This document shows, in pieces, positions 1-15,460 of a stretch of DNA of 64,000 nt; the stretch's first letter is position 1, and each line of letters starts with the position of its first letter. Origin of the DNA: a bacterium (GTDB taxonomy: Bacteria; Electryoneota; JAOADG01); assembly GCA_963681965.1 (NCBI GenBank), contig OY820579.1, positions 64,001-128,000 on the forward strand, written 5' to 3'. The notes under the pieces are model-generated. The model saw nothing but the letters and a program-made list of their open reading frames with translations. It had not been told where the DNA came from and did not search any database. Position numbers and translations under genes: made by a program.

Positions 1-333
1 CTTTTCCGATCCTCATTACTCTTGAAAAATAATCAAAAAAGGGAATTCGGACAAATTTTTCAGGCGAAACAAATGAACCGTTTCGCTTATAGACTTGTTT
101 TCGATACAACTAATTGCGTAATATTGGTTCAATCGGCAAGTTTCTTGTTGTTAAATAATAGTCTGTTATTTATAATCACCAGATTATTCGTGATTCGGTT
201 CACAATAATATTGTACGATCAAAACGAGTTTAGTGCGGTAACGGAAAAGATTTATCGATTTTGTACAAACGGCATTCAACCTAGCTTGATTGCATTACTA
301 TTACTATCGATCGAAATACTCGAAGGGAGGAAG

Positions 334-666
334 ATGAAAATTATCGATACTCCGTTTACGGTACTTGACTGGTCTGAAATCGCAAGCGATTCGATTTCGG
401 GATCAATCGGGATATGCGATTGGCAAACCCTCGAAACAGGCAATGTTCGGATTCGCAAGGTTCGATATCAGCCCGGTTTTCAAGCGGATCATTTCTGCAA
501 ACGCGGACACGTGGCACACGTCCTTTCGGGTGATTTGACGATTGCATTGAACGACGGTACGATTCACTTGCTTCAAGCCGGGATGAGTTTCGTAACAGCC
601 GACGACGAAGCCAACCCACATGCGGTTTCGACAATCAATGGTGCGACGGTGTTTATCGTAGATTAA
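334..666 (+). CDS. DHCW-motif cupin-fold protein
   Basis: MKIIDTPFTVLDW...RKVRYQPGFQADHFCKRGH matches the DHCW cupin family. RBS GGGAGG at 325-330 favours ATG 334 over the track start at 22. Confidence 0.8.
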   Translation: MKIIDTPFTVLDWSEIASDSISGSIGICDWQTLETGNVRIRKVRYQPGFQADHFCKRGHVAHVLSGDLTIALNDGTIHLLQAGMSFVTADDEANPHAVSTINGATVFIVD

Positions 667-678
667 GTTGGCGGTCGA

Positions 679-2922
679 TTAGACTGAAGGAAACTGCCAC
701 TGCAATAGGCGAGATTTATATTCGCGACAGAAGAGTTCCGCTTCCTGTTTCTTACCGTTGAACATCACGGCATGAATCAACCCAATACCAGCGACAAACT
801 CGAGTTCGTAACGCAATTCCTGATTGGTTTCGGTCGTGATGGCGAGTACCAGTCGCAGCAATTTGCTGCCATCGGTTTGTGGAATCAGTTTGTATCCATC
901 ACTTCGAGCCCGCCCACTCCCCGGCAATTCAAGCATCCGCTTCAATTGACTTGCCATCCGGAAACCGTGGACATCGTTTTCCCAAACGTAGTTTCCGAAC
1001 TGCAACGGCAATACCGCAAGTGCCGGACCGAACAGCGATAGCAATCCACTCTTGCCGGAACCAGTGTGATCGGGATCGGCTTCATCCAATGCATCCAAAT
1101 ACCAGTGTCCCGAAGTTTTTACCGCATTCAGAACTTGCTTGCCGTCATCCAATAAAAAGCGTCCGTATAGTCCAGAGCGTATTTTTACGATCACATCGTC
1201 TGTAGTAAATCCGGACGATAACCGGTAATTCCACTCCCCGCCGATAATCGAAAATGGAAAATAATCTTCCAATTTGGTGGGGAATTGAGCAACGAAATCA
1301 GTTATGAGATCGCCCGGTAGCAGCTCTCCCTCAGCCAGATAGTGGGTTTGATTGCCTCGTTTGGCGACGAGACTAGCCCACTTCGCTGACAGCGTTTGCG
1401 CACCGGGATACCAATCCGATTGGAGTTGGACATGGAGATGCGGTTCCGGCGAACGTCCACTGTTTCCGACACGACCGACTTCTTGACCGGCGTTGACATG
1501 CTGTCCGATCGCAACTTTCACGCTGCCATTCTGAAGGTGTGCTAACAAAGAATATTCACCCTTCGAATGATAGATCGAAACGTAGTTTCCGAAGGGATTT
1601 TCGGTATCGACCGTTTGCGGTGGATTGTCGGGAAGATAATTCACGAAAGCAACTACTGTTCCGGCAGCCGGTGCCAGTACCGGTAGTCCGTAACCATAGT
1701 AATCGGTCAAAGAGAGACAAGGATATGAAGCAGATCGTTTATCGCGATCCAGCAACATCAAATCCCAGGCATACTTACCAATTCCATTATGGGTGGGTTG
1801 ACCGTCCACGCTTTGTGTCAGCGTCCATTGTCCGTAGTGCGGCATGCGGAAAGAGGTCAGTGCGTTGCCAGAGGTTCTCCGCCAGCGCCAATATTGCCGA
1901 AGATTACTCTCGGCAGTCCCCACATTCGCCAGTGGATACACATGAATACCCTTTAATATTCCGAGCCGGAAGGGAAAGAGTAGTATTAGAATACCGATCG
2001 CAAAGGGGAAAGCAAGTGGCGGCAGGTCGCTGGGTGCGAGAAAAATCTTCGTTGCAACCGCGAGAACTCCAACCAGCACAGTTCCGAGCAATGCAAAGAA
2101 AATACCGCGCCAATTCGGCAACACAAAAACACCGCACAAAGCTCCAGCCGCGAAAACACAATTGAACGCGGTTAGCGCAGTTTCTTCACTGAATAATTGC
2201 GCATGCACAAAAAGATTAACGAACAGGATTCCGATACCAGCACCGACGACCATCGCAATTGCGGTGATACGGGTTCCGAGCAGGATCCCGGTTAAAATTA
2301 AGAGACCTGCCAGAACACTGGTCTGGAATGATGTTGCACCGATCACCCTAAGAAATAAATTCACCATATCGGGTAATCGCGCAGTTAAATGCTCATTGAG
2401 AGCGAGCAACCACGGAATGTAGTTTTCACTATGTGCCTGACTTATCGGGATCCGCGATTGTGGTACCATCCGCGTCGATAAAAGCCCCACCCAACTAGCC
2501 AACACAAAGGGTAATGCCGTAGCGGACAAACCGTATTGCCAGCCCAACCAACTGGTCAACATAGCACAGAGGACTGCGGCAAAGATCGCAGCAAGTGGTA
2601 CTAAAAAGAGCATCGAAAGGGACGGCGACAGATAGAGCGAAAGCGCCAATCCGGTTAACAAACCCGCCGCTCCAAAAATACCGGCACGGAAGTAAGCACG
2701 GTCGGCGAAATACAACTTTGCAAAGAGATGGGCAGAAAGCGCACCGAGTAAACCGTAAAATCCGTGGTGAAGTTGGAGAAAAGTGGCTGCTAAAAATAGG
2801 AGACCGGTGCGACGGCGACCGGTAAATAGAACGGCTCCATAGGCAGTGAGAAGATCGTTAATCAGCTCGCGCAACACTTGGAGCCGATTAGATTTGAGAA
2901 CGCTGCCGGTTGCATCACTCAA
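679..2922 (-). CDS. Urea-transporter(UT)-fold membrane domain fused to M23 family metallopeptidase
   Basis: About 10 hydrophobic helices with two UT-like repeats (GIFGAAGLLTG..ALPFVL / TAFNCVFA..AFPFAI). M23 motifs follow: THNGIGKYAWD, PVLAPAAGTV, GNYVSIYH, LAHL, GNSGRSPEPHLHVQ. Confidence 0.85.
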   Translation of the reverse strand: MSDATGSVLKSNRLQVLRELINDLLTAYGAVLFTGRRRTGLLFLAATFLQLHHGFYGLLGALSAHLFAKLYFADRAYFRAGIFGAAGLLTGLALSLYLSPSLSMLFLVPLAAIFAAVLCAMLTSWLGWQYGLSATALPFVLASWVGLLSTRMVPQSRIPISQAHSENYIPWLLALNEHLTARLPDMVNLFLRVIGATSFQTSVLAGLLILTGILLGTRITAIAMVVGAGIGILFVNLFVHAQLFSEETALTAFNCVFAAGALCGVFVLPNWRGIFFALLGTVLVGVLAVATKIFLAPSDLPPLAFPFAIGILILLFPFRLGILKGIHVYPLANVGTAESNLRQYWRWRRTSGNALTSFRMPHYGQWTLTQSVDGQPTHNGIGKYAWDLMLLDRDKRSASYPCLSLTDYYGYGLPVLAPAAGTVVAFVNYLPDNPPQTVDTENPFGNYVSIYHSKGEYSLLAHLQNGSVKVAIGQHVNAGQEVGRVGNSGRSPEPHLHVQLQSDWYPGAQTLSAKWASLVAKRGNQTHYLAEGELLPGDLITDFVAQFPTKLEDYFPFSIIGGEWNYRLSSGFTTDDVIVKIRSGLYGRFLLDDGKQVLNAVKTSGHWYLDALDEADPDHTGSGKSGLLSLFGPALAVLPLQFGNYVWENDVHGFRMASQLKRMLELPGSGRARSDGYKLIPQTDGSKLLRLVLAITTETNQELRYELEFVAGIGLIHAVMFNGKKQEAELFCREYKSRLLQWQFPSV

Positions 2923-2934
2923 GGGTAATGTCTT

Positions 2935-3060
2935 TCAATTCACCAACACTGCGCGATATCGTACAGAATTGGATCTTACCTGTGCTATTTCGTCCGCTTC
3001 ATCTTGCCGGAGTAATAATGTTACACTTGGTTCTTGAGCGGTTTGGACAGCAAATTTCAT
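2935..3060 (-). CDS. Unannotated 41-aa ORF inside the operon (candidate precursor/accessory peptide)
   Basis: Hand translation gives MKFAVQTAQEPSVTLLLRQDEADEIAQVRSNSVRYRAVLVN*. It starts 7 nt after the decarboxylase stop and ends 12 nt before the next start. RBS is weak. Confidence 0.45.
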   Translation of the reverse strand: MKFAVQTAQEPSVTLLLRQDEADEIAQVRSNSVRYRAVLVN

Positions 3061-3067
3061 CTCGTAC

Positions 3068-4450
3068 TCACTTTCGGAGATGTTCCGGTAGTTGATCGAG
3101 TTGCTTCCAATATTCGACAGTTTCCGCTTTGCGAACGATGTGTGTCTCGCCTTGTTCGTCGATTAAAATTACTGGCGGTCGTGTATGAATAAACTGCGTC
3201 GACTGGGTAAAATTGTATGCCCCGATGTTGCGGACGACTAAATGATCGCCGGTACGCATCTGCGGTAATGAGGTATCGTGACTCAACACGTCGATGTTCA
3301 TGCACAGATTTCCGAGGATCGTGGTTCCCTCGGTCATGACGCCGGTTTCCGCCGAAGCCCGCATATCGTACTTATACCAGTAAACATTCGAGAGCAAATT
3401 GATGCCGGCATCGACTACGATCGCTTTCCGATCGCCACTTAACCGCCGTTGACTGACGACAGTGGTAACCATGTGCATCGACTCGTCCACCATCGCTCGA
3501 CCGTGTTCGAACATTAACAGTGGCAACTCGTCGGTAGAGAACGGACCTTGCAATAGTATCGGACAAATTGCTTCGGCATACATATTGAAATCCGGGCAGG
3601 ACTGCTCACCCGGCAACCAAGCGGAATGGAGCGTATTTTTCGATGCAAAGCCACCGCCGAGATCCCAGTATTTGAGCTTTATATCAAAATCGTTGCGAAG
3701 CAGAGTGGCTAACTCGACGATCTTCGTTGCTTGCTGCGAATACATATTGACATCGTCGATGTAGGTTCCAATGTGACAGTGAATACCGACTAATTCGAGA
3801 TGCTGACTATCGACGATTCGCTTTGCGACGGTATAAGCATCGCCGCTTTCGTATTGGAATCCAAAACGCGACCACGGTGGATAGTTCAATTCCAGTGCGA
3901 TACGGATTCCAACTTCGACTTTTCGATTCAATTCGCGCGCAACTTCTTCCATCAAGTAATATTCATCGAAACTATCCAAATTGATAATTGCGCCATCTTC
4001 GACTGCTCGCGTCAAATCCTGACGCGATTTATCGGGACCATTGAAAACGATTTGATTTCCGGGAATTCCGTTTCGTCGAGCCATCTCGTATTCGGTACCC
4101 GAAACGACTTCCGCCCATGCCCCTTCGCTATGCAATGTCATCGTAACGGCATCGAGGTAATTCGTTTTATAACTGTATGCGAGTTGTACTCGAGGATATC
4201 GCGGACCGAAGGCTTGCATCAACATCCGGTAGCGACGCCGGAGCGACGATTCCGAAATCACATACAGCGGCGAACCGTACTTCTTGACCAATTTTGCAAC
4301 CGAGACGCTATCGATCGAACTGTAAGGATAGGCAGAGTGGGGACGACCGTATTTGTTGGTCAATCCGACCACATTGCGAATAATTGTCGGCTTTTCCCAA
4401 AACTCTTTACGAATGGAATCGCCTTCATTCGGGGTAAATTGTCCCGTCAT
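3068..4450 (-). CDS. PLP-dependent group IV (LysA/Orn-DAP-Arg fold) decarboxylase-like protein
   Basis: YSYKTN (PLP lysine), EVVSGTE, FNGPDK, SRFG, HCHIGT, DLGGGF, EHGR, GNLCMNID, GAYN. Confidence 0.85.
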   Translation of the reverse strand: MTGQFTPNEGDSIRKEFWEKPTIIRNVVGLTNKYGRPHSAYPYSSIDSVSVAKLVKKYGSPLYVISESSLRRRYRMLMQAFGPRYPRVQLAYSYKTNYLDAVTMTLHSEGAWAEVVSGTEYEMARRNGIPGNQIVFNGPDKSRQDLTRAVEDGAIINLDSFDEYYLMEEVARELNRKVEVGIRIALELNYPPWSRFGFQYESGDAYTVAKRIVDSQHLELVGIHCHIGTYIDDVNMYSQQATKIVELATLLRNDFDIKLKYWDLGGGFASKNTLHSAWLPGEQSCPDFNMYAEAICPILLQGPFSTDELPLLMFEHGRAMVDESMHMVTTVVSQRRLSGDRKAIVVDAGINLLSNVYWYKYDMRASAETGVMTEGTTILGNLCMNIDVLSHDTSLPQMRTGDHLVVRNIGAYNFTQSTQFIHTRPPVILIDEQGETHIVRKAETVEYWKQLDQLPEHLRK

Positions 4451-4452
4451 TA

Positions 4453-5559
4453 TTACTCCTTTTCTCCATGTCCAGCACGATCGTCTCGATAAACGACTTC
4501 ACCATGCACAATCAGTCCTTCCAACGCATCCAATTCACAAATAATATCGACTGCATGTCGAGCGAAAGTCACGCCACTACGATAGTTCGGCAACACTCCG
4601 GGATCTTGTCCCAGTGCCAATTGTAGGTTTGCATACGGTAGATTCTGCCCTGATCCGGTCGTAAGATAGCACCACGATGGAAACCGGGGATTGATTTCAA
4701 TCAGGTAAAACATCCCGCTCTGTTCGTGTCGCATCAATTCCAATTCACAGGGACCGCGCCATTGCAAAGCTTCGATGACTCGTCGCGACAGTTCCAAGAG
4801 TTCGTTATCGCGAATCGTAATCCCTGCCCACGCTTTGCCTTTTTCCGTCAACCGCAGTTTACGCATCGGTACTGCGCCGATTAAATTCCCTTTGCCATCG
4901 CCAACGGCGCAGACATTGTATTCCTCACCGGGAATCATGTTCTGCACCATGATCGGAATACCCCATTTGGCGCGAAGTTTTTCAAAATAGATCACCGCTT
5001 CCGACCAGGAATGCGCAATATATGCTTCGTAGAACACCCCTTTGATTACCGCCGGAAATCCTGTCCGGGCAATGGCTCGATCGAGCGACGGTAGGTCGGT
5101 AACGGTTTCAGTGATTGGAACCGGTAGGTCGTTTTTCGAACAAAACTCGACTAATCGTGCTTTGGAACGCATTCGCAACGATTTCAGATCGGGAATAAAA
5201 GTACCGATCCCCATCGTAGTAAGATCGTCGCGGATCGAATTATACAGATCGAGTTCGGAATCAAGATTGGGGATGATCGCATCAAGTTTCACGCGCGAGT
5301 TGATATAGTGAATTCGATCAAGCGTAACTTCGGCACCCGTGTTGGGATAAGGGATGAGATAAACCTGATCGACGATATCTTTATCGAAGCTTCCAGTATC
5401 ATAGGTGTCGTAAGTCAGACCAATAATCAAGCCATCGTACCCGCCTTGACGAATCGATTTCGCCACAGCGATTCCGGGGGCAGGATTATCGGTCGCTTGT
5501 AATCCGGTGATTGCCACAGCTTTCGGACGAGATGCACTGTAACTATCGCTTTTTATCAT
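4453..5559 (-). CDS. ATP-grasp carboxylate-amine ligase family protein
   Basis: GFPAVIKG, VQNMIPGEEYNV, ELELM, FYLIEINPRF. RBS GAGGA precedes ATG 5559. Confidence 0.85.
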   Translation of the reverse strand: MIKSDSYSASRPKAVAITGLQATDNPAPGIAVAKSIRQGGYDGLIIGLTYDTYDTGSFDKDIVDQVYLIPYPNTGAEVTLDRIHYINSRVKLDAIIPNLDSELDLYNSIRDDLTTMGIGTFIPDLKSLRMRSKARLVEFCSKNDLPVPITETVTDLPSLDRAIARTGFPAVIKGVFYEAYIAHSWSEAVIYFEKLRAKWGIPIMVQNMIPGEEYNVCAVGDGKGNLIGAVPMRKLRLTEKGKAWAGITIRDNELLELSRRVIEALQWRGPCELELMRHEQSGMFYLIEINPRFPSWCYLTTGSGQNLPYANLQLALGQDPGVLPNYRSGVTFARHAVDIICELDALEGLIVHGEVVYRDDRAGHGEKE

Positions 5560-5649
5560 CAGATGCTTCCTCTGCACAATAATCCCGAGCATCGCTTCCG
5601 ATCGAAATTCGGATCACACCGTCGTGAATATCGGCTCTTAAACATTCTA

Positions 5650-5886
5650 TTACAGTAAAGAGAATTTCTTAATTTGTGTCACGAATTGTTCGATATCGAA
5701 GCGTGCTTCACGCTCGTCGACTTCGAACTTATTCATCACATCCCGAAGGATTGAATTCGGTTCTTTCTCAGCCAGCAATTGCTGCATGATATAAGTTCCG
5801 GAATTGTTGAGTGTATAGGTAATGCCGGTAGCATGGTCGAATAAAAACCCGCTTTCGGTCAAGGTAATGCGGTCATTGAGGGGCAT
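5650..5886 (-). CDS. Stand-alone PqqD-family / RiPP recognition element (RRE)-like protein
   Basis: 78 aa; GFLFDHATGITYTLNNSGTYIMQQL..ILRDVMNKFEVDEREARFDIEQFVTQI fits the three-strand, three-helix PqqD pattern. Purine-rich GGGACGGAGA precedes ATG 5886. Confidence 0.8.
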   Translation of the reverse strand: MPLNDRITLTESGFLFDHATGITYTLNNSGTYIMQQLLAEKEPNSILRDVMNKFEVDEREARFDIEQFVTQIKKFSLL

Positions 5887-5935
5887 TCTCCGTCCCATCC
5901 AATCAAGCGAGATTTTCCAATCTCGACATTCTTCG

Positions 5936-5970
5936 ATACAACGGGTACGGCGGTAATACGTTGATTGCAA
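5936..5970 (-). promoter_or_regulatory. Candidate ECF-sigma promoter for the RRE operon
   Basis: Minus strand TGCAATCAAC-N16-CGTTGTAT, i.e. the AAC-N16-CGT pattern typical of ECF promoters, about 55 nt upstream of the PqqD-like start. Confidence 0.45.
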
Positions 5971-5997
5971 ACAATCCAGTAAGATCGACGACCCGAC

Positions 5998-6213
5998 TTA
6001 AAATATCGCCAGCAGTCTCGACCAATCGACATTTAATCCAAGCAAAGCGCGCTTTTCAGCCAATTGTGCCGTTTCACCATAACCTTCGCGTACGGAACCA
6101 TTGCTCAACGTAACGAAGCTGCGATACTGCTTTCCAAAAACTTCCGTTATCATCGAAATCACGATAACGCGTTCGATTTCTTTTTCCATGGTAACCCTCA
6201 ACGGACTGCTCAT
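5998..6213 (-). CDS. Small hypothetical protein (start uncertain: 6291, 6213 or 6189)
   Basis: ORF between the ECF sigma and the PqqD-like gene. RBS-like GGAG and GAGGG precede ATG 6213 and ATG 6189. Confidence 0.5.
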   Translation of the reverse strand: MSSPLRVTMEKEIERVIVISMITEVFGKQYRSFVTLSNGSVREGYGETAQLAEKRALLGLNVDWSRLLAIF

Positions 6214-6304
6214 TCTTTGCTCCAAGGTCACAGATAGGTATTTATCCGCTCGAGAGACAATACGATTGAAATTACGGTTTAAAACTCCCAAATCAACATC
6301 ATAA

Positions 6305-6865
6305 CTATTCTTCGATCATCGTCTTTAGTCTCGCTACCGCAAAGCTGAAATTCGCCTTCACGGAACCGACGGTTTTCCCGGTCAAACTCGCGATTTCCTG
6401 ATTGGAAAGTTCTTCTTCATGTCGCATAATAAATACCGAACGCTGTTTCGGCGACAATTTCTCCAATGCAGCCTTTAATTGAGCTTTTCGCTCTTTGAGC
6501 ATCACGATCTCATCGGGAATCGGATTATCACTCGGAACGTTCTGGAAAAGATCTTCGTCCTCGCCCCATTCGTCAGTGTTACGAAACACCGCCCACATTT
6601 TCCGACGCCGCATATGGTTCAGCGAAAGATTGTAGACAATCCTAAATACCCAGGATGAGAACGCACATTCGCTTCGAAACCGCGGCAGCTCTTCCCATGC
6701 TTTCAGAAAAGAATCCTGCACCACATCTTCCGCTTCCTGACGATTGCGTAGCAACCGGGTAGCGAGGATCAATGCGCGTTCGCGATGTGCAACCACCAAC
6801 CGATTGAAGGATTGCGTGTCGCCCGACACCGATGCGAGGATTAGTTCTGTTTCGTTCCGATTCAT
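6305..6865 (-). CDS. ECF RNA polymerase sigma-70 factor
   Basis: EAEDVVQDSFLKAW, FSSWVFRIVYN (region 2); LSPKQRSVFIMR..SNQEIA..GSVK (region 4). Confidence 0.93.
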   Translation of the reverse strand: MNRNETELILASVSGDTQSFNRLVVAHRERALILATRLLRNRQEAEDVVQDSFLKAWEELPRFRSECAFSSWVFRIVYNLSLNHMRRRKMWAVFRNTDEWGEDEDLFQNVPSDNPIPDEIVMLKERKAQLKAALEKLSPKQRSVFIMRHEEELSNQEIASLTGKTVGSVKANFSFAVARLKTMIEE

Positions 6866-6879
6866 CGGTGAATATAAAG

Positions 6880-6896
6880 AGCAACTAATGTGCCAA
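6880..6896 (-). promoter_or_regulatory. Sigma-54 (-24/-12) promoter
   Basis: Minus strand TTGGCAC-ATTAG-TTGCT matches the TGGCAC-N5-TTGC consensus exactly. It lies directly upstream of the ECF sigma and downstream of a sigma54 activator gene. Confidence 0.85.
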
Positions 6897-7026
6897 TAAT
6901 CTTATGTTATTGTTTAATCACGCATTAGATATAAATCAATTACATATTTACGCAGTCTTCGACTTTTTCTACGAGAAATTGAGCTTTCAATCACGAGATA
7001 ACCGATTAGAAATACTCATTTCACCG

Positions 7027-8154
7027 CTAATCTTGACGCTTATTCCACTTTTGCAATCGATCGCGGATATTTTTCTCAGATATTCCCAGTCTTCTGGCGG
7101 CTTCACTCCGATTGCCATTGGAATCGACTAGCGCTTGCTCGATTAACTTGCGTTCGTACTCTTCCACCAACTCGAACAGATTTTTCGATGGTTCGAAAGG
7201 ATCGGGATTCGATTGCGATTTCCTCTCACTTTCGTCAATTTCAGCCCGATCAGGTTCAATTCGATCAGGAGCATTCACTGAAAGTGTAGTGTTTACCGTT
7301 TCACTTGGTTGATTAAATAGGACCTGATTCTCATCATTATTCTTAATTTCAGACGCTGAAACCGGGAGAATGACCGTTTTTTCGACCGAACCGGAAAATT
7401 GAGGCGGTAAATCCTCTTCATCAATTAAATTTTTTGTCGCTAGAATGACAGCATGCTCGATCGCGTTCTCTAATTCGCGGACATTTCCGGGCCAATCATA
7501 CCGCAAAATTCGCTGCCAAGCTGCCGGAGTCAATCCACGAATTGATTTCTCATTGCGTGTGTTGATGGTTCTGACAAAGAAATCAGTAAGGGGTCGGATG
7601 TCTCGTCTTCGAAATCTAAGTGGTGGAATTTTAATAACTACCACATTCAAACGATAAAAAAGATCCTCTCGGAAAGAACCTTCTCGAACCATTTCCGCCA
7701 AGTTGCGATGCGTAGCCGTAACAATCCGAACATCGACGTTGATCTCTTGCCGACCACCGACCCGATAAAAAGAGTGATCTTGCAGGAATCGGAGAAGTTT
7801 TACCTGAGTATTGGCAGGTAAATCGCCAATTTCATCAATAAACAGTGTCCCTTGGTGAGTTTCTTCGATGAGACCCTTGCGATCATGATCGGCGCCGGTA
7901 AAAGCACCTTTATCGTACCCGAAAAGTTCCGATTCCAACAAGGCTTCGGGGAGAGCGGCACAATTCACTGCGGTAAAAGGACATTTCGCTCGAAATGAAG
8001 AGGAGTGCAAGAGACGAGCAATTAATTCTTTGCCAGTTCCCGATTCACCTTGAATGAGAACGGTCGCAACAGTCGGAGCGACACGTTTGGCAATATTCAC
8101 GACCGATTCAAATTCACCGGATTCGTAAATAATATTTTTTTGCCAATCGCTCAT
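7027..8154 (-). CDS. Sigma-54-dependent activator (AAA+ plus Fis HTH) lacking an N-terminal sensory domain
   Basis: [49 protein letters not shown]-terminal [13 protein letters not shown]. Walker A is about 36 aa from the N-terminus. Confidence 0.95.
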
Positions 8155-8251
8155 CTTGAATTCAATCTCAAATCTTTCAGCACCTTACACCATTCGTAGA
8201 TTTCGTCGAGATAAGATACTGAGAGCAGCGATTGCAATCCAAGAGTAAAAA

Positions 8252-9049
8252 TTAATTTCTCTTATTCGAGGTGATTCCTATCATTCGGAACAGTTCCCAA
8301 GCGATTTCTTTGGCTTTTTGTCCATAGGCATGATCAGGTGCCCTAATTGTAAATGCAAATACATAAATTTTAGTATCTTGCTCGATCCATCCAACATATC
8401 GACCCATCACCGATTTTCCATCGATCATTTGCGAGCCGGTTTTCCCGTGAAGGATATATGAATTCGTCGAGTCTTGGATCGTGATTGCTTTAACGATGTC
8501 AGTTGAGCGCTTGGAAAATGGGAGTTGATTTCGTGTTAACTCGGTGAGAAATTCGATTTGTTGCCAATCGGAGATCAGTATAGAACCCTTCGATAGCCAG
8601 AAGCGATCAATTCCTGCCGAAATATCGCGGTTTCCATAATGAATTGTATCAAGATATGCCTGCATTCGTGTTTTACCGATGCGGCGAGCTAATTCTTGAT
8701 AGAACCAAACTACCGAATTTTGAATTGCTGTCCGCAGACAATGGTCGTGATTCCAAGAAGTTATGTTATCGGAAACGCCATTCCACTTGATAATTTCTTC
8801 GGGATCGGCAATTGCTCCCGCTTCGAGTGCAAAGATTGAATTGGGGATTTTGAAAGTTGAACAAGGTAGATGGGGTATCGAGCAGCCGGATGCATTCAAC
8901 ACCAGTGTATCGCCGGATGTCAGCTCGACAATCGCACCAGAGGCAGTATAACCATTGAAAAGAGTATCGGTTTTCAGCTCCGAGACCGCATAAACCGAAG
9001 AGGAAATTACGAATAAAAGTCCAATCGAACTGATAAGCAATCGATTCAT
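8252..9049 (-). CDS. Class D (OXA/BlaR-like) serine beta-lactamase family protein
   Basis: Signal peptide; STFK, SVVW, YGN, FWL and KTG motifs. Confidence 0.88.
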   Translation of the reverse strand: MNRLLISSIGLLFVISSSVYAVSELKTDTLFNGYTASGAIVELTSGDTLVLNASGCSIPHLPCSTFKIPNSIFALEAGAIADPEEIIKWNGVSDNITSWNHDHCLRTAIQNSVVWFYQELARRIGKTRMQAYLDTIHYGNRDISAGIDRFWLSKGSILISDWQQIEFLTELTRNQLPFSKRSTDIVKAITIQDSTNSYILHGKTGSQMIDGKSVMGRYVGWIEQDTKIYVFAFTIRAPDHAYGQKAKEIAWELFRMIGITSNKRN

Positions 9050-9125
9050 GGCTATTCTCAGCAGTTTGGTGGATCGAATTAGATTCGAATAGAAGAGTGA
9101 ATCATGAATCAGAAGGCGAACGTGA

Positions 9126-9794
9126 TTATGCTTCTTTTTTCACCCAGATCCAGAAAATAAAACAGGTTTTTAGCGATTGTTTCCGCTTAAATTCAAACTT
9201 CGTCAACCAATCCAACGGAATTACTGGCGAAAAGGCATAATGTGACCGGATGTCGACGATTCGGAATTTCGCTTTGAAATAATCAATAATCACAGGATTG
9301 GACAACACGTTGTTCCAATAACTGTGCCAGCGGTGAATATATCGGCGATATATTCTGACGAGACAGTTACCGCTTCCGGTTTCGATAAATAAGCCTTGCC
9401 CATTGGGTTTTAACAACCGATGGATTTGCGCTACCCATTGTTGATAAACCTCACGGTCTTTGATGTGGTAGAGTACGCTTTTCGTGACGATGATATCAAA
9501 TTGATCTTGTAATTGGAATAAATCGCCAACAATAAACGAACATTTATCGGCAACTCCGGCATTCTTCACATACTCTATCGCATTTTCCCTGCAGGTCGCT
9601 TCACTCTCGATACCAACCACCTCGGCACCAAGATTCGCAAGCAGTGCCGCAAATCGCCCTTTACCGTAACCAATTTCCAAAACCCGCTTACCTCGAAAAA
9701 AATCCGGACCGACAGCTTCTAATGCTTCATTCAGCACCGGTCCCCAGAATTTGACACGCCATTCGGCAGCTTCTTCGATTAAACGGTAATCCAT
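9126..9794 (-). CDS. Class I SAM-dependent methyltransferase
   Basis: VLEIGYGKG motif I, FDIIV, LLKPNG. Confidence 0.85.
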   Translation of the reverse strand: MDYRLIEEAAEWRVKFWGPVLNEALEAVGPDFFRGKRVLEIGYGKGRFAALLANLGAEVVGIESEATCRENAIEYVKNAGVADKCSFIVGDLFQLQDQFDIIVTKSVLYHIKDREVYQQWVAQIHRLLKPNGQGLFIETGSGNCLVRIYRRYIHRWHSYWNNVLSNPVIIDYFKAKFRIVDIRSHYAFSPVIPLDWLTKFEFKRKQSLKTCFIFWIWVKKEA

Positions 9795-9939
9795 TATGTA
9801 CCCTTTTGTTGTTACGTTTGACTAGGAAATTACTAATTAATCAATATCCAAACAAGCATACTGAGTGGTTAATATGCGCGATCTAGCTGAACTAACCTAA
9901 AGAGCATTTTTGGAGGTGCTTTTCCGTCTTCGTATACTT

Positions 9940-10053
9940 TAGTGGTTCTTGAAAATAAGTTGTTATAATTCGGTGTCAGGCTTCGCCTGACCTGCGGGCA
10001 GACACGGGGGTCAGCCCCTACTACCGATAACAACTTATTTTCAAGAGATACTA
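9940..10053. repeat. Composite REP/MITE-like element, copy A
   Basis: TCTTGAAAATAAGTTGTTAT...ATAACAACTTATTTTCAAGA terminal inverted repeat enclosing GTCAGGC-TTC-GCCTGAC and a GTAG-REP hairpin. Confidence 0.9.
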
Positions 10054-10077
10054 TTTAGCGATATTTTGAGGTGTATT

Positions 10078-11001
10078 GTGAGCGATCAAGTCAATGTAGC
10101 GGGGCGTTCAGACGAGTCTCGCGAAGTAGGATCCTGGAAAGTGAAAGTCGGTTTAGCAGAGATGCTAAAGGGTGGCGTGATTATGGATGTCACGACCGCC
10201 GAGCAAGCAAAACTAGCCGAAAAAGCGGGTGCATCGGCAGTCATGGCACTGGAACGCATTCCCGCAGATATTCGTGTTCAAGGTGGCGTAGCCCGGATGT
10301 CGGATCCGAAGTTGATCCAAGAAATTCAAGCAGCAGTGACCATCCCGGTAATGGCAAAATGCCGGATTGGACATATTACCGAGGCTCGGATCCTGGAAGC
10401 GTTGGCAATCGATTTCATCGACGAATCAGAAGTCTTGACCCCAGCCGACGAGCAGTATCATATCTGGAAACACGATTTTAAAGCACCATTTGTGTGCGGA
10501 TGTCGAAATTTGGGCGAAGCGTTGCGCAGAATCGGCGAAGGCGCTGCCATGATTCGCACCAAAGGGGAAGCTGGCACCGGCAATGTGGTCGAGGCGGTTC
10601 GGCACATGCGATCTGTGACCGAAGAGATGAAACGGTTACAAGGACTTCCGCCGGAAGCCTTGATGGCGGCAGCGAAAAATCTTGGCGCACCATTCGATCT
10701 CGTGCAATATGTTGCGGAACACGGCAAATTACCGGTACCGAATTTTGCTGCCGGTGGCGTAGCCACCCCAGCCGATGCAGCGCTGATGCGTACCCTCGGT
10801 GCCGAAGCAGTTTTTGTCGGCAGCGGCATCTTCAAATCGACTGATCCATTGGCACGGGCAGAGGCAATCGTTCGAGCGACTACTTATTGGGACGATCCCA
10901 AAGTGCTTTTGGAAGTCTCAACCGGTCTCGGTGAGCCGATGAAGGGTTTGTCCATGGAGCAAATTCCCGAGAGCGATCGCCTCGCCGGTCGCGGCTGGTA
11001 A
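10078..11001 (+). CDS. pdxS: Pyridoxal 5'-phosphate synthase lyase subunit
   Basis: [51 protein letters not shown], ends RGW. RBS GAGG precedes GTG 10078. Confidence 0.97.
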
Positions 11002-11401: not shown

Positions 11402-14400
11402 CTAGCTCTTAATCGAAGCGAGTGCTTTCCGAATTAATTCACCCATTTCGTTGATCTTGTACGGTTTTACCGCAACGGCAATAAATCCGAAATCGCGGTA
11501 ATTCGCAATGACCGGATCAGTCGAGTATCCACTGGAAACGATCGCTTTGACAGCAGGATTAATTTCGCGCAACATTTTCAATGTTTCCAAACCACCGACA
11601 CCGCCCGGGATCGTCAAATCCATAATCACGAGATCGAAAGTCCGGTTTTCGGCGATCGCTTTTTGGTATTCTTCGACAGTTTGCCGCCCATCTTCCGTGA
11701 TTGTCACCTCGTACCCGAAGTGCTTCAATCCCCGTTCCAGAACCGATCTAACGATATCATCGTCGTCTAAAACTAAAATCCGACCTTTTCCTTTGATATT
11801 GTTGATATCGAGTGATTGCGAAGCTTCAATGTTCGAATTTGCGCTCGCTACCGGCAAATAGACGGTAAAAGTGCTGCCGACCTTTTCCTGCGAACTAACT
11901 TCGATCGCACCGGAATGATATTTTACGATCGAGTAGGTAGTTGCAAGTCCAAGTCCGGAGCCACTCTCTTTCGTAGTGAAATAGGGATCGAAAATCTTGT
12001 CGATCTGCGTCGATGGAATGCCAATTCCGGTATCGATCACCTCGATCCGGATATAATGATCACCCTCAAGTGTGACTGGTAGTGCGTGCTCGCGCCTCGA
12101 TACGTTCTTTGCACGAATAATAATCGATCCGCCTTTCGGCATCGCTTGATCGGCATTAATCACAAGATTCTGGAATACTTGACTTATTTGCCCGGCATCA
12201 ATTTCCACCGTCCACAAATCAGCAGGAAGTTCGAATTTGCAGGTCGATTTCGATCCGCGAAGAGCAAACTCGACGGTATCGATCAGAATATCTTTAATCG
12301 CCTGCGATTTTCGGATCGGTGTTCCGCCTTTGGCGAACATCAACAATTGTTGCGTAAGATCTTTGGCGCGCAACGCGGATTTCTCCGCTTCGGCAAGCAA
12401 TTTGATGGTTTCATCTCGAGCATCAGGAAACATTCTAACAAACGAAATACTTCCAACAACACCGGTAAGCAGATTGTTAAAGTCGTGTGCTATTCCTCCG
12501 GCAAGGATACTGAGCGATTCCAATTTCGCAGATCGTTGCAACTCCTCTTGTACTTTCTTTTCGGATGTGACATCGCGGAAAACCAGTACGACACCAATTA
12601 CCACGCTATTGGCATCGAAAATCGGTGCTCCGGAATCGGCGATCACATATTCATTCCCATTGCGAGAAAGTAATTTGGTATGGTTTGCCAGACCGACGAT
12701 TTTCTTTGTTCGGAGGACAGCATCGACAGGACTTTCCAGCGGTTTGCGAGAATTGATATCGACGATCACAAAAATATCGTGTAACGGTTTTCCCAGCGCT
12801 TCCTCTTGTGTCCACCCGGTCAATTTTTCAGCCACTCGATTCAATAGCGAAACCCGACCAGCCCGATCGGTTGTGATGACACCATCGCCAATACTGCGGA
12901 GTGTCACTGCCAGTCGCTCTTTCTCTTCCTGCAAAGCCATACGATTCATCATACCATCGGTCACATCCCCGATCGTTCCGAGCAATCGAATCGGGAGTCC
13001 ATCGATGTTACGTTCGATAATTGATGAATTTTCCAGGCAGAGATATCCACCATCTTTTTTTCGAACCCGATAGGTTGCTTCGAAGAATTTATTGGAAGAA
13101 TCGACTGATTCAGCGACCTGTCTTTTCACAGAATCGAAATCGGAGGGGTGTATCCAGCTAATCCAAGTCTGAATCGTATTATCAAAATCCTCTGCATCAT
13201 ACCCAAGCATCGATAAAATGTTCTCATCGATGAAAAGCTGCCCGGAAATCGGATCCAGTTCGGAAATACCGACTTTTCCAGCCAAGGTTGCCATTTTGTA
13301 GCGAGCGGCAATTTCTTGAAGTCGCTCTTGCGTCTGCTTCAAAGCTGTCACATCGACATCGAGACAGAAAATTTCCTTGACAACCCCATCTTGAAGGACT
13401 GGGAACATCGATGAATATACCCAGACCCGTTCTCCAGATGAAGCGATCGTCGACCATTCCGATGGCTCTGTCGGTTTTCCACTGTTCCAAATACTATCGA
13501 TTGTCTCTAAAAAAACCGATTTATCGACGTCGGTGGTCAAGATTACATCTTGAATTTTCTTACCAATGACTCCTTCTTTTGGCTGCCCGTACAAAGTCTC
13601 GGACTTAGAATTCCAATGAATAATCGTTCCATCGCGATCATATCCCTGGATCGCAATCATAGGATTGTTTTCGATGATATTATCGAAGCTTTCACGAGTA
13701 TCGCGGATTAATTTATCGGCTTGGATTATTTGGGTGATATCTTTACTGACAAACAGCAGAAACTTTTCCTGTTCATAGTTTTCGAACATATCCGCCGAAC
13801 AAAGAAACGTTCTCACTTCTCCCGATTTGGTTCGATATTCTCTGATAGCGGTATTTAACTTGGGGTTTTCGAGCAGATAGGCAATCACGCGATTTCTTTC
13901 CGCTTGATCTTCGTAGAAGAAATCCGAAGCCAACCTACCAACCAACTCTTCGCGGCTATAGCCCGATACTCGAACGAACTCCTCGTTGACATCGACAAAT
14001 ATGCCATCGGTCATCGATGAGATTGTGACGGCATTCGGGTTATTATTGAACGCACTGGAAAATTTCAGTTCGGAAGCTTGCAGCATCCGTTCCATCCGTT
14101 TTCGTTTGGAAATATCTTGAAATGCCAGCAAGACGTGCCAATCGGATTGTATGGAATATGTCAATTGAAGATCGACAATCGTGGGTTTTTTCGAAAACCG
14201 GATTCGTGTTTCTTCTTCAATCACCAAATTTCCATTACCCAATTTCATTATCGCATTCGACATCGATTTTCGAAATTCTTCGGTCGAGAACGATTCAGGA
14301 TGCAATTTCGCTTGTTCTTTCGAATTCAATTCGAGAAGATTCAATGCCGCACGATTAATTCCGACAATTTTAATTTTCTCAATCATCGGCACGAGCGGCG

Positions 14401-15460
14401 TATAATCCTGAGTTAGATCCCAGCTCTCAAGTTGTCGGCAAAATTGCGGCAAAGACGATTTGAACGGGATCAATTCCGATGCATCGATCTCCATCATCGG
14501 GATTGGCGAGTCTTCGAACAAATGACGAAAACGAATTTCCCGATTTCTCAATTCCGCATGATTCTGCATCCGATCAGTTATGTCGCGGATGGTTGCCTGA
14601 ACGATGTTTTCACCGTCAATATCGATCGCATGCAAACTAATTTCCGTGTCGATTTGCTTACCGGATTTGGATTGATAAATCCATTCGAATACCGGTCGCT
14701 CTCCCGCATTTGCCACAAATAAATATTTATCAACTAGCGATTTTGAAGAAATTCCGTTTGCCTGAGTTTCGGGCGAAAAGTCGATCGGTGATTTGCCAAG
14801 AAAATCATCGCGACTGAAACCCATTAATTTTTCGGTGAGAAAATTGCAATCGCAAAAATAGCCGTCTTTCAATAACATGATAGCATCGTTGGCATTTTCA
14901 AACAGCAATCGATATTTTCGTTCACTCGTTTGTAATTGCAATTCAGCCAGTTTTCGTTGGGTAATATCTGTACGGGTACCAATAATTCGAATCGGATCAC
15001 CCGAAGGTTCGCGTTCGACAATATTCCCTTGCGAGAGCACCCACATCCAAGCGCCATCGCGTTTTTTTAAGCGGTATTCCGATCGGTATTCCGAAGCCGA
15101 ACCGTTAATGTAAGCGTTCAGATCACTCTGCATTCGCAGCAGATCATCCGGGTGAATCAGTACTCGCCACCGTGTATACAAGCGATTGAACTCATCCGGG
15201 TCGTATCCCAACATTTCTGCCCAATGAACGTTGATCGAATCCCCGGTTCTTCGATTCCAATCCCATACCGCTTGATTTGCACTTTCCAGAGCAAGCTGCA
15301 ATTGTTGTTCGCGCTTGCGCAATATGTCGAATACCGCTTTGGTCTCGTCTGTTTCCGACGGGAGATTCGTCATCCCATTAATTAATGCAAGCGCTATTTG
15401 AAAATCCGCTTCGGATTTGCAGGTAGCTCGAAGTTCTTTCATCAATTGCGAGGATAACAT
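11402..15460 (-). CDS. Cytoplasmic multi-PAS hybrid histidine kinase / receiver
   Basis: Multiple PAS/PAC repeats, AGGIAHDFNNLL H-box, NLVINA, DTGIGI, FDPYFTTK, GLGL, and a C-terminal receiver (ILVLDDD, MDLTIPG). Confidence 0.95.
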   Translation of the reverse strand: MLSSQLMKELRATCKSEADFQIALALINGMTNLPSETDETKAVFDILRKREQQLQLALESANQAVWDWNRRTGDSINVHWAEMLGYDPDEFNRLYTRWRVLIHPDDLLRMQSDLNAYINGSASEYRSEYRLKKRDGAWMWVLSQGNIVEREPSGDPIRIIGTRTDITQRKLAELQLQTSERKYRLLFENANDAIMLLKDGYFCDCNFLTEKLMGFSRDDFLGKSPIDFSPETQANGISSKSLVDKYLFVANAGERPVFEWIYQSKSGKQIDTEISLHAIDIDGENIVQATIRDITDRMQNHAELRNREIRFRHLFEDSPIPMMEIDASELIPFKSSLPQFCRQLESWDLTQDYTPLVPMIEKIKIVGINRAALNLLELNSKEQAKLHPESFSTEEFRKSMSNAIMKLGNGNLVIEEETRIRFSKKPTIVDLQLTYSIQSDWHVLLAFQDISKRKRMERMLQASELKFSSAFNNNPNAVTISSMTDGIFVDVNEEFVRVSGYSREELVGRLASDFFYEDQAERNRVIAYLLENPKLNTAIREYRTKSGEVRTFLCSADMFENYEQEKFLLFVSKDITQIIQADKLIRDTRESFDNIIENNPMIAIQGYDRDGTIIHWNSKSETLYGQPKEGVIGKKIQDVILTTDVDKSVFLETIDSIWNSGKPTEPSEWSTIASSGERVWVYSSMFPVLQDGVVKEIFCLDVDVTALKQTQERLQEIAARYKMATLAGKVGISELDPISGQLFIDENILSMLGYDAEDFDNTIQTWISWIHPSDFDSVKRQVAESVDSSNKFFEATYRVRKKDGGYLCLENSSIIERNIDGLPIRLLGTIGDVTDGMMNRMALQEEKERLAVTLRSIGDGVITTDRAGRVSLLNRVAEKLTGWTQEEALGKPLHDIFVIVDINSRKPLESPVDAVLRTKKIVGLANHTKLLSRNGNEYVIADSGAPIFDANSVVIGVVLVFRDVTSEKKVQEELQRSAKLESLSILAGGIAHDFNNLLTGVVGSISFVRMFPDARDETIKLLAEAEKSALRAKDLTQQLLMFAKGGTPIRKSQAIKDILIDTVEFALRGSKSTCKFELPADLWTVEIDAGQISQVFQNLVINADQAMPKGGSIIIRAKNVSRREHALPVTLEGDHYIRIEVIDTGIGIPSTQIDKIFDPYFTTKESGSGLGLATTYSIVKYHSGAIEVSSQEKVGSTFTVYLPVASANSNIEASQSLDINNIKGKGRILVLDDDDIVRSVLERGLKHFGYEVTITEDGRQTVEEYQKAIAENRTFDLVIMDLTIPGGVGGLETLKMLREINPAVKAIVSSGYSTDPVIANYRDFGFIAVAVKPYKINEMGELIRKALASIKS

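Follow-up and report, generated by a model that had tools for sequence, protein, structure and literature searches.

We analysed a 64,000-nucleotide (nt) stretch from a bacterium of the phylum Electryoneota (contig OY820579.1, positions 64,001 to 128,000; hereafter the window), in which a row of genes on the minus strand encodes a small PqqD-like protein, an ATP-grasp ligase, a pyridoxal 5'-phosphate (PLP)-dependent decarboxylase and a membrane protein that joins a urea-transporter (UT) domain to an M23 peptidase. Gene positions were taken from the list of open reading frames (ORFs), and families were assigned by Pfam and NCBIfam searches of the window proteins. The PqqD-like protein (5650..5886; ~78 aa) is of the type that serves as recognition element (RRE) in the pathways of peptides made by ribosomes and modified post-translationally (RiPPs), and it matches PF05402 with 38.2 bits (cut-off 23.4; E 1.8e-9). 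Its longest reading frame, 5650-5970, begins with a TTG at 5970; an alignment of 28 homologues points to the ATG at 5886 as the likely start. The ligase (4453..5592) is of the PF15632 type with a carbamoyl-phosphate-synthase-like annotation in Pfam and NCBIfam, and a 2-nt gap separates its gene from that of the decarboxylase (3068..4450), an alanine-racemase-fold enzyme of the ornithine/diaminopimelate (DAP)/arginine type which NCBIfam scores, structural relatives and residue mapping place in a FigC/FslC-like subfamily. After a 41-aa ORF without Pfam or NCBIfam match (2935..3060), the row ends with the UT-M23 fusion (679..2922; 747 aa; 150.7 bits to PF03253 and 60.6 bits to PF01551), beyond which a cupin gene follows on the other strand. 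All the genes named in a first-pass annotation of the window, including the sigma-factor and activator genes described below, were recovered on the minus strand and in their places by the ORFs and the Pfam and NCBIfam searches.

The four main genes form a conserved functional unit, far beyond chance. Databases contain more than 5000 relatives of the ATP-grasp protein, at ~50% identity across many phyla. A one-genome-per-species scan returned at least 600 pattern matches, of which at least 592 were confirmed as ATP-grasp relatives, and we fetched 80 loci; these are the best-matching of the at least 592, picked by likeness to the ligase, and hence represent close orthologues and a non-random sample. 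Their taxon labels, quoted from the scan listing without counts, comprise Bacteroidota, Ignavibacteria/Chlorobi, Balneolales, Neomarinimicrobiota, Lentisphaeria, Myxococcota, Deltaproteobacteria/Desulfobacteraceae, Leptospiraceae and Gammaproteobacteria. By tblastn, the fetched loci share one order of the core, from PqqD through ligase and decarboxylase to UT-M23, in agreement with the clustering of ORFs: the decarboxylase lies directly downstream of the ligase and is followed by UT-M23 wherever the contig is long enough, and PqqD was found upstream of the ligase in most loci with the window proteins as queries. With profile hidden Markov models, PqqD was detected in 77 of the 77 loci having at least 300 nt of upstream flank, the decarboxylase in all 69 with at least 1.5 kb of downstream flank, and UT-M23 in all 51 with at least 5.5 kb, counts that are partly circular since the models were derived from the same 80 loci.

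The reading frames of the core abut or overlap, with intergenic gaps mostly below 30 nt. Among 31 genomes of the host's phylum, nine hold a ligase orthologue, and full-length UT-M23 orthologues occur in exactly the same nine, the other 22 having generic M23 matches only. In one genome of the host's family (G007), UT-M23 is located on another contig than PqqD, ligase and decarboxylase, yet it has been retained. Furthermore, metagenomes contain single polypeptides that combine the ATP-grasp and decarboxylase domains in the order of the genes (P0146, confirmed by Pfam; P0148, P0150 and P0152 carry the fusion according to precomputed domains). It is the synteny, the abutting or overlapping frames and the matching presence and absence in the 31 genomes that make the four genes a functional unit, and the first-pass annotation, which had let its case depend on their occurring together elsewhere, is borne out on this point by the same order in 80 loci from many phyla. 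A further fusion candidate, P0114 (436 aa), was rejected, its N-terminus being of low complexity. Other metagenomic ligase relatives (P0127-P0145, ~710 aa, 32-40% identity) look, by length and precomputed domains, like tandem double ATP-grasp enzymes, and one ATP-grasp orthologue (G013, C4:336161-337213) contains one in-frame TGA.

The decarboxylase scored 263 bits with the NCBIfam model of FslC (NF041039; cut-off 500) and 238.8 bits with that of LysA (TIGR01048; cut-off 297.9). Its best solved relative is FigC (7kh2; 3e-71, 243.6 bits), compared with 1e-45 and 159.6 bits for an archaeal DAP decarboxylase (DAPDC), and BtrK (PDB 2j66, 7ru7) is matched at 1e-24. FigC groups with SbnH, AcsE, MccE and BtrK, all of them decarboxylases of conjugates (PMC7857480). 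In this enzyme fold, the acid adjoining the catalytic Cys binds a free side-chain amine, and Arg343 of the M. jannaschii DAPDC binds the distal carboxylate of DAP; FigC has Thr327, Thr330 and Tyr331 on its specificity helix and contacts citrate through His357, Arg387 and Asn389 (PMC7857480). The HMMER alignment places a Met at the position of the acid in the window protein, as in Cys354-Met355 of FigC, and the position of Arg343 is occupied by Ser (Thr in the family consensus). The three helix positions of FigC correspond to Asn, Trp and Tyr, and its three citrate contacts to Ile, Gln and Thr. Across 65 family members, the PLP lysine, the His, the Gly loop and the catalytic Cys are kept (YSYKTNY, HxHIGT, GGGF and CMNID), and the specificity-region motifs GPLCMNIDV and FWY are invariant or nearly so. 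Since the relatives in the FigC clade act on conjugates and the residues for a free amine or carboxylate have been lost, the decarboxylase probably acts on the conjugate made by the ligase and not on a free amino acid; the distal part of its substrate would be neither citrate nor a free amine. The idea of the first-pass annotation that the enzyme supplies a free amine to the ligase is thus disfavored for a FigC-like protein without the residues needed to bind a distal amine or carboxylate in free form.

Judged by its sequence, the decarboxylase is not LysA. A score below the LysA cut-off and the loss of both the DAP-binding Arg and the acid argue against an action on meso-DAP, which, combined with the enzyme being the genome's only LysA, had been considered fatal to the pathway proposed at first. 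The sole-LysA part is literally the case: the 99.9%-complete single-contig genome, which also has DapF, contains no LysA-like or PF02784 gene other than the cassette decarboxylase. This refutes nothing, however, because 17 of the 31 genomes of the phylum contain neither a LysA-like gene nor the cassette, and because separate canonical LysA genes exist in other cassette genomes. Of five such genomes, in which the cassette decarboxylase scores 217-228 bits on the LysA model, three hold a canonical LysA as well (375-450 bits). A LysA above the cut-off was found in two of the 31 phylum genomes, and with 17 lacking any LysA-like gene, its absence is a trait of the phylum. LysX of the alpha-aminoadipate route was searched for in the host genome and not found; DapF is present there, and canonical LysA and LysX are both absent.

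The AlphaFold2 model of the ATP-grasp protein (predicted local distance difference test (pLDDT) score 89) is nearest to 2pn1, a structure of unknown function, to biotin carboxylases, to carbamoyl-phosphate synthase and to the L-amino-acid ligase RizA, which together give no clue to the substrate. The motif E-I-N-P-R-F-P and the K/G motifs are invariant in 17 homologues. In NCBIfam, PqqD comes closest to the lasso-peptide PqqD chaperone, at 46.5 bits and below the cut-off of 70. Its alignment exhibits the usual conserved strand-turn residues; no Cys, Lys or C-terminal acid fit for a covalent carrier is conserved. A predicted complex of PqqD with the ATP-grasp protein scored 0.09 (mark 0.32), which says nothing either way, and no PqqD-ATP-grasp fusion was found among longer PqqD relatives, which is weak evidence. 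One relative of 272 aa (P0153) is a fusion of a TetR DNA-binding domain with a PqqD domain.

A PqqD-like protein raises the question of a precursor peptide, which the first-pass annotation had expected to be bound by the RRE; a co-encoded one is not apparent. The 41-aa ORF had no tblastn match in the 80 loci and in four loci of phylum relatives, and the gap that contains it, 145 nt in the window, is shorter than 30 nt in most other loci; it is probably not a conserved gene. Outside large genes, we looked for small ORFs of 18-75 aa between -4 kb and +9 kb of the start of the ATP-grasp gene, covering 79 of 81 loci (the 80 fetched and the window), and none was common to more than two, closely related, loci, with the reservation that BLAST is insensitive on short peptides. 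The gaps within the operon are too short to hold a precursor gene. The locus is neither a PQQ nor a graspetide locus, as had been stated from the outset: no PqqB, PqqC or PqqE family was matched among the 12 proteins of window positions 1-11001, the rest of the genome not being searched; no peptide-maturase family is among the ligase's 12 NCBIfam matches, and no graspetide precursor was found. Lasso cyclase and B2 protease families likewise had no match among the window proteins.

In the UT-M23 protein, the UT domain (~aa 18-343) matches dvUT (3k3f) over its full length (E 2e-28). It passes the PF03253 cut-off of 25 and stays below that of the UT equivalog model TIGR03441 (129.6 bits; cut-off 274.6). 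Urea recognition in the UT pore is ascribed to a Gln-Thr-Thr-Gln polar relay in a structural study of 2024 (PMC11589576). The relay positions, which are Gln, Thr, Glu and Thr in dvUT, are all alanine in the window protein (Ala30, Ala136, Ala196 and Ala304). Among 59 full-length family members, the first position is Gln in 39 and the second is Ser, in place of Thr, in 53; the third, on the second pore helix, is never Gln or Glu (Ala in 40, Ser in 15, Asn in three, Gly in one), and the fourth is Ser in 34 and Ala in 19 instead of Thr. With all four relay residues replaced in the window protein and the third never Gln or Glu in the family, it is doubtful that the UT domain functions as a canonical urea channel.

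The M23 domain (~aa 360-520) was modeled together with the rest of the protein (aa 345-747; AlphaFold2, pLDDT 76) and has fold matches at Z 15.6-12. Its zinc and catalytic residues are intact, H378, D387, H452, H462, H495 and H497 being invariant in 30 homologues; the first His and the Asp are spaced by 8 residues, compared with 3 in the canonical M23 motif HxxxD. Both ends of UT proteins are cytoplasmic. In the fusion, a Lys/Arg-rich linker, with no further hydrophobic segment, leads from the last UT helix to the M23 domain, and from this topology and the charge of the linker, the M23 domain probably faces the cytoplasm, which would be unusual for its family. The last 200 residues are poorly conserved: the C-terminal domain (~aa 549-739) is beta-rich, models as an open beta-structure and has weak matches only (Z 6-9) to lipovitellin, BDI_3050 and LolA-like open barrels, which are lipid-binding; we claim no fold for it. 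Given a pore without polar urea-recognition residues and a probably cytoplasmic peptidase, the membrane fusion may, but need not, cleave and export the product as first proposed.

Most loci contain two extra genes downstream of UT-M23, which in most loci overlap their upstream neighbor by 4-26 nt. One, for a ~450-aa tetratricopeptide-repeat (TPR)/barrel-like protein, is present in 31 of the 44 loci with enough flank, and the other, for a TPR protein of ~210 aa with a signal-peptide-like start, in 38 of 43. A domain search confirmed TPR in the 210-aa and a 456-aa protein; neither Pfam nor NCBIfam has a match to the ~450-aa protein, and a language-model search placed it near TPR proteins and YaiO outer-membrane barrels, which we take as a lead only. 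Of the outer-membrane barrel with a TPR domain that marks synthase-dependent exopolymer export, the TPR part is therefore confirmed and the barrel is this lead, and the window locus has neither gene. These downstream genes suggest delivery across the envelope.

Other neighbors vary among the loci. In L027, L032, L034, L046 and L047, a protein of 267 aa that bears a type IX secretion sorting tail is encoded between PqqD and the ligase, and a DUF2202 gene lies within the operon or next to it in L027, L049, L053 and L080. In 15 Bacteroidota loci, a gene for an AraC-type regulator is positioned just upstream of PqqD (e.g. L061:5934-6527; L104:7224-7793); the regulator has a weak CopZ-like match at its N-terminus (NCBIfam E 2.5e-4, 21 bits vs 91), and no HMA domain was found in it by Pfam search even at E 5. 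A YHS-domain gene adjoins the unlinked UT-M23 of G007. The CopZ-like, YHS and DUF2202 neighbors may hint at a link to metals, as a lead only. PBP2 and RodA genes are located directly upstream of the AraC-PqqD operon in L038, L050, L059, L075 and L083, which are of Bacteroidales type.

Upstream of PqqD, the window carries genes that are not part of the conserved core. An ORF of 97 aa (5998..6291, minus strand), which the first-pass annotation had not mentioned, lies between PqqD and the gene of an extracytoplasmic function (ECF)-type sigma-70 factor (6305..6865, minus strand; Sigma70_r2 and r4_2). The ORF has no Pfam, NCBIfam or PADLOC match and a single paralogue (43% identity, near genome position 1,712,000); it is absent from related loci by tblastn and is specific to the host lineage. 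PADLOC matched none of six window proteins. Next follows, on the same strand, a gene for a sigma-54 enhancer-binding protein (7027..8154) with AAA+ and HTH_8 domains, in which the Sigma54_activat match (235 bits) begins at residue 8, so that no N-terminal sensor or receiver domain is present. In the 161-nt gap between the activator and ECF genes there is a sigma-54 promoter motif, TGGCAC-N5-TTGC (6881..6895, minus strand), which is the sole site with zero mismatches in the window and lies on the correct strand; the 4.24-Mb genome has 16 perfect sites, where ~7 would be expected, and encodes rpoN. A scan of positions 400-8400 for terminators and sigma-70 promoters returned nothing above shuffle level, and no terminator was detected in the minus-strand intergenic gaps. 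Given the sigma-54 site, and with no terminator-like site seen between the genes as far as UT-M23, the whole row may be one sigma-54-dependent transcript. By eye, an AAC-N16-CGT motif was spotted upstream of PqqD.

The two-tier sigma cascade described in the first-pass annotation therefore stands in part: a perfect match to a sigma-54 promoter does precede the ECF gene, but the cascade is not dedicated to the cassette, being absent from a locus of the same family and from nearly all others. The ECF factor has a paralogue elsewhere in the genome (61% identity). Neither sigma gene occurs in the same-family locus L096, few of the 80 loci have an activator or ECF gene nearby, and in three same-family genomes the ECF homologues are on contigs other than that of the cassette, two of these assemblies being fragmented. 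In other lineages, AraC-type, LytTR or Crp-type regulators take their place. The arrangement of the sigma genes is local wiring and not part of the conserved system. Farther upstream, a class D beta-lactamase-like ORF (8252-9049, minus strand; 231.6 bits vs a cut-off of 250) lies directly beyond the activator gene and also matches the BlaR1 sensor model, and positions 11402-15460 (minus strand) encode a hybrid histidine kinase of 1352 aa that contains numerous PAS domains plus a receiver domain.

We tentatively favor reading the core as a cytoplasmic pathway, coupled to the envelope, that would ligate first and then decarboxylate. The ATP-grasp enzyme would activate a carboxylate as an acyl phosphate, and this carboxylate would be amide-linked to an amino-acid building block through the side chain of the latter, leaving the alpha-amino-acid end free. 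The FigC-like decarboxylase would then remove the alpha-carboxylate of the conjugate, as do FigC, SbnH, BtrK and MccE, to yield an amine-ended product. PqqD may hold a peptide-like partner, encoded outside the operon, for one of the two enzymes, and UT-M23, in which the peptidase is tethered to a trimeric-transporter fold, could trim or release the product at the membrane. In most other lineages, the product would be handed over to the TPR/outer-membrane-barrel-like and TPR proteins. The analysis establishes the gene content, its conservation, the intact catalytic motifs and a pocket that is of neither the LysA nor the citryl type; the steps and their order are deduced. Several points weigh against this scheme. 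The order of its two steps is borrowed from relatives only, and the decarboxylase, below the FslC cut-off and without the citrate residues of FigC, must have a different substrate. The cytoplasmic position of the peptidase depends on homology to UT topology and on the linker charge, and the model of the C-terminal domain is of low confidence (pLDDT 40-85). With a PqqD/RRE protein, a precursor encoded by a gene would normally be expected, and the operon has no conserved one. Finally, the window locus lacks both downstream envelope genes, of which tblastn detected no homologue elsewhere in the genome.

A more ambitious version of this scheme, which we consider rather unlikely, would make the cassette a new envelope-directed class: PqqD would recruit a non-dedicated peptide, the ligase and the decarboxylase would add an amine-ended cap to it, and UT-M23, without a urea site and with its peptidase in the cytoplasm, would release and translocate the product to the TPR/outer-membrane module. 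The reverse order of steps, which is that of the first-pass annotation, has the decarboxylase make a free amine, which the ligase joins to a PqqD-bound peptide or protein at a carboxylate, before the M23 fusion matures or exports the product. Pathways in which an ATP-grasp enzyme receives its amine from a PLP decarboxylase are described in the literature, and a pocket rich in Trp, Tyr, Ile and Met could accommodate a neutral or hydrophobic free amino acid. However, the nearest characterized relatives act on conjugates (PMC7857480), the window enzyme lacks the residues for binding free diamino-acid side chains, and the ligase comes first in both the gene order and the fusion order (weak evidence), so that we regard this order as unlikely. 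A true RiPP pathway of the lasso-like kind appears improbable, even if PqqD exceeds its Pfam cut-off and finds its best, sub-threshold NCBIfam match in a lasso-peptide chaperone, and an intact peptidase and an ATP-dependent ligase share its operon. In such a pathway, the RRE would be PqqD, the leader peptidase M23 and the amide former the ATP-grasp enzyme, decarboxylation would be a tailoring step, and the precursor would be encoded elsewhere or be too short or too variable for detection. What argues against it is the lack of a conserved small ORF in the 79 loci, with operon gaps mostly below 30 nt or overlaps, and the lack of a match to the lasso cyclase and B2 protease families; moreover, a free alpha-amino acid is what a PLP alpha-decarboxylase requires, and a ribosomal peptide can provide one only by way of a residue linked through its side chain.

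The peptidase and the descent of the decarboxylase would also be compatible with a cell-wall system, in which the enzymes act on meso-DAP stem peptides or their precursors, by ligation to DAP or by its decarboxylation, with the M23 domain cleaving bonds of the same kind. M23 proteins are mostly peptidoglycan endopeptidases, as weak NCBIfam and fold matches recall here, the decarboxylase belongs to a DAPDC-related clade, and DAP with an acylated distal amine would fit the loss of the amine-binding acid. The five Bacteroidales-type loci with PBP2 and RodA upstream point the same way, as do LytTR two-component systems and Acyl_transf_3 genes near others. That neighborhood is limited to closely related loci, though, and the conserved core includes no Mur-ligase-type or other wall-precursor gene; PqqD, ligase and decarboxylase have no signal peptides, and the peptidase is probably cytoplasmic. 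We therefore judge a role in the wall to be quite improbable. Least credible, to the point of being nearly dismissible, is a lysine-forming LysA with unrelated neighbors: its status as the sole LysA-like and PF02784 gene in an essentially complete genome with DapF would favor it, but an enzyme that scores below the cut-off, is devoid of the DAP-binding Arg and acid and always travels with the ligase and PqqD does not behave as one, and the separate LysA of three of the five other cassette genomes and the 17 phylum genomes without any LysA-like gene remove the need for it.

The pathway of ligation followed by decarboxylation would concern a large group of organisms: the carriers comprise at least 592 species representatives from many phyla, including cultivable Bacteroidota such as an Algoriphagus isolate. 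Its parts are each understood (RRE, ATP-grasp, conjugate-type PLP decarboxylase and M23, together with a reused UT fold), and their architecture is without a described counterpart. Solving the system would yield a new product or envelope modification, would assign a function to a large branch of the FigC/SbnH/BtrK decarboxylase clade that is still an orphan, and would test whether RRE proteins work outside classical RiPP pathways.

As to known systems, no NCBIfam model names any of the four core proteins above its cut-off, and full-text literature searches found no paper that describes the cassette; the closest reviews and analyses mention PqqD or ATP-grasp in other contexts only. The first-pass statement that the locus matches no known class is thus upheld by the curated families of NCBIfam, by PADLOC and by the full-text literature searched, and there is a fair chance that a ligase and conjugate-decarboxylase pathway with an RRE is a class of its own. 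The membrane protein has the same fold as dvUT over its whole UT domain, and differs from it in being fused to a peptidase and in having alanine at every urea relay position. The split-B systems of lasso peptides also assemble a PqqD-type RRE, a peptidase, an ATP-dependent amide former and a membrane component in one operon. Here, in contrast, there is no precursor gene, the peptidase is of the M23 and not the transglutaminase-like type, the amide former is an ATP-grasp instead of an asparagine-synthetase-like enzyme, and a PLP decarboxylase is added. In butirosin biosynthesis, the ATP-grasp ligase BtrJ is paired with the decarboxylase BtrK, which is of the same fold and acts on a substrate tethered to a small protein. 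That small protein is an acyl carrier protein with a thioester, whereas the cassette encodes a PqqD fold without carrier residues. The FigA/FigC (FslA/FslC) rhizoferrin pathway of Francisella (PMC7857480) employs a synthetase of the NRPS-independent siderophore type in place of an ATP-grasp enzyme, relies on citrate residues that are replaced in the window decarboxylase, and has no counterpart to PqqD, UT-M23 or the TPR genes. It nevertheless resembles the chemistry that we propose, in that a side-chain amide conjugate is formed at the expense of ATP and then alpha-decarboxylated by a PLP enzyme of the same fold, and FigC and the window decarboxylase have the Cys-Met pair in common.

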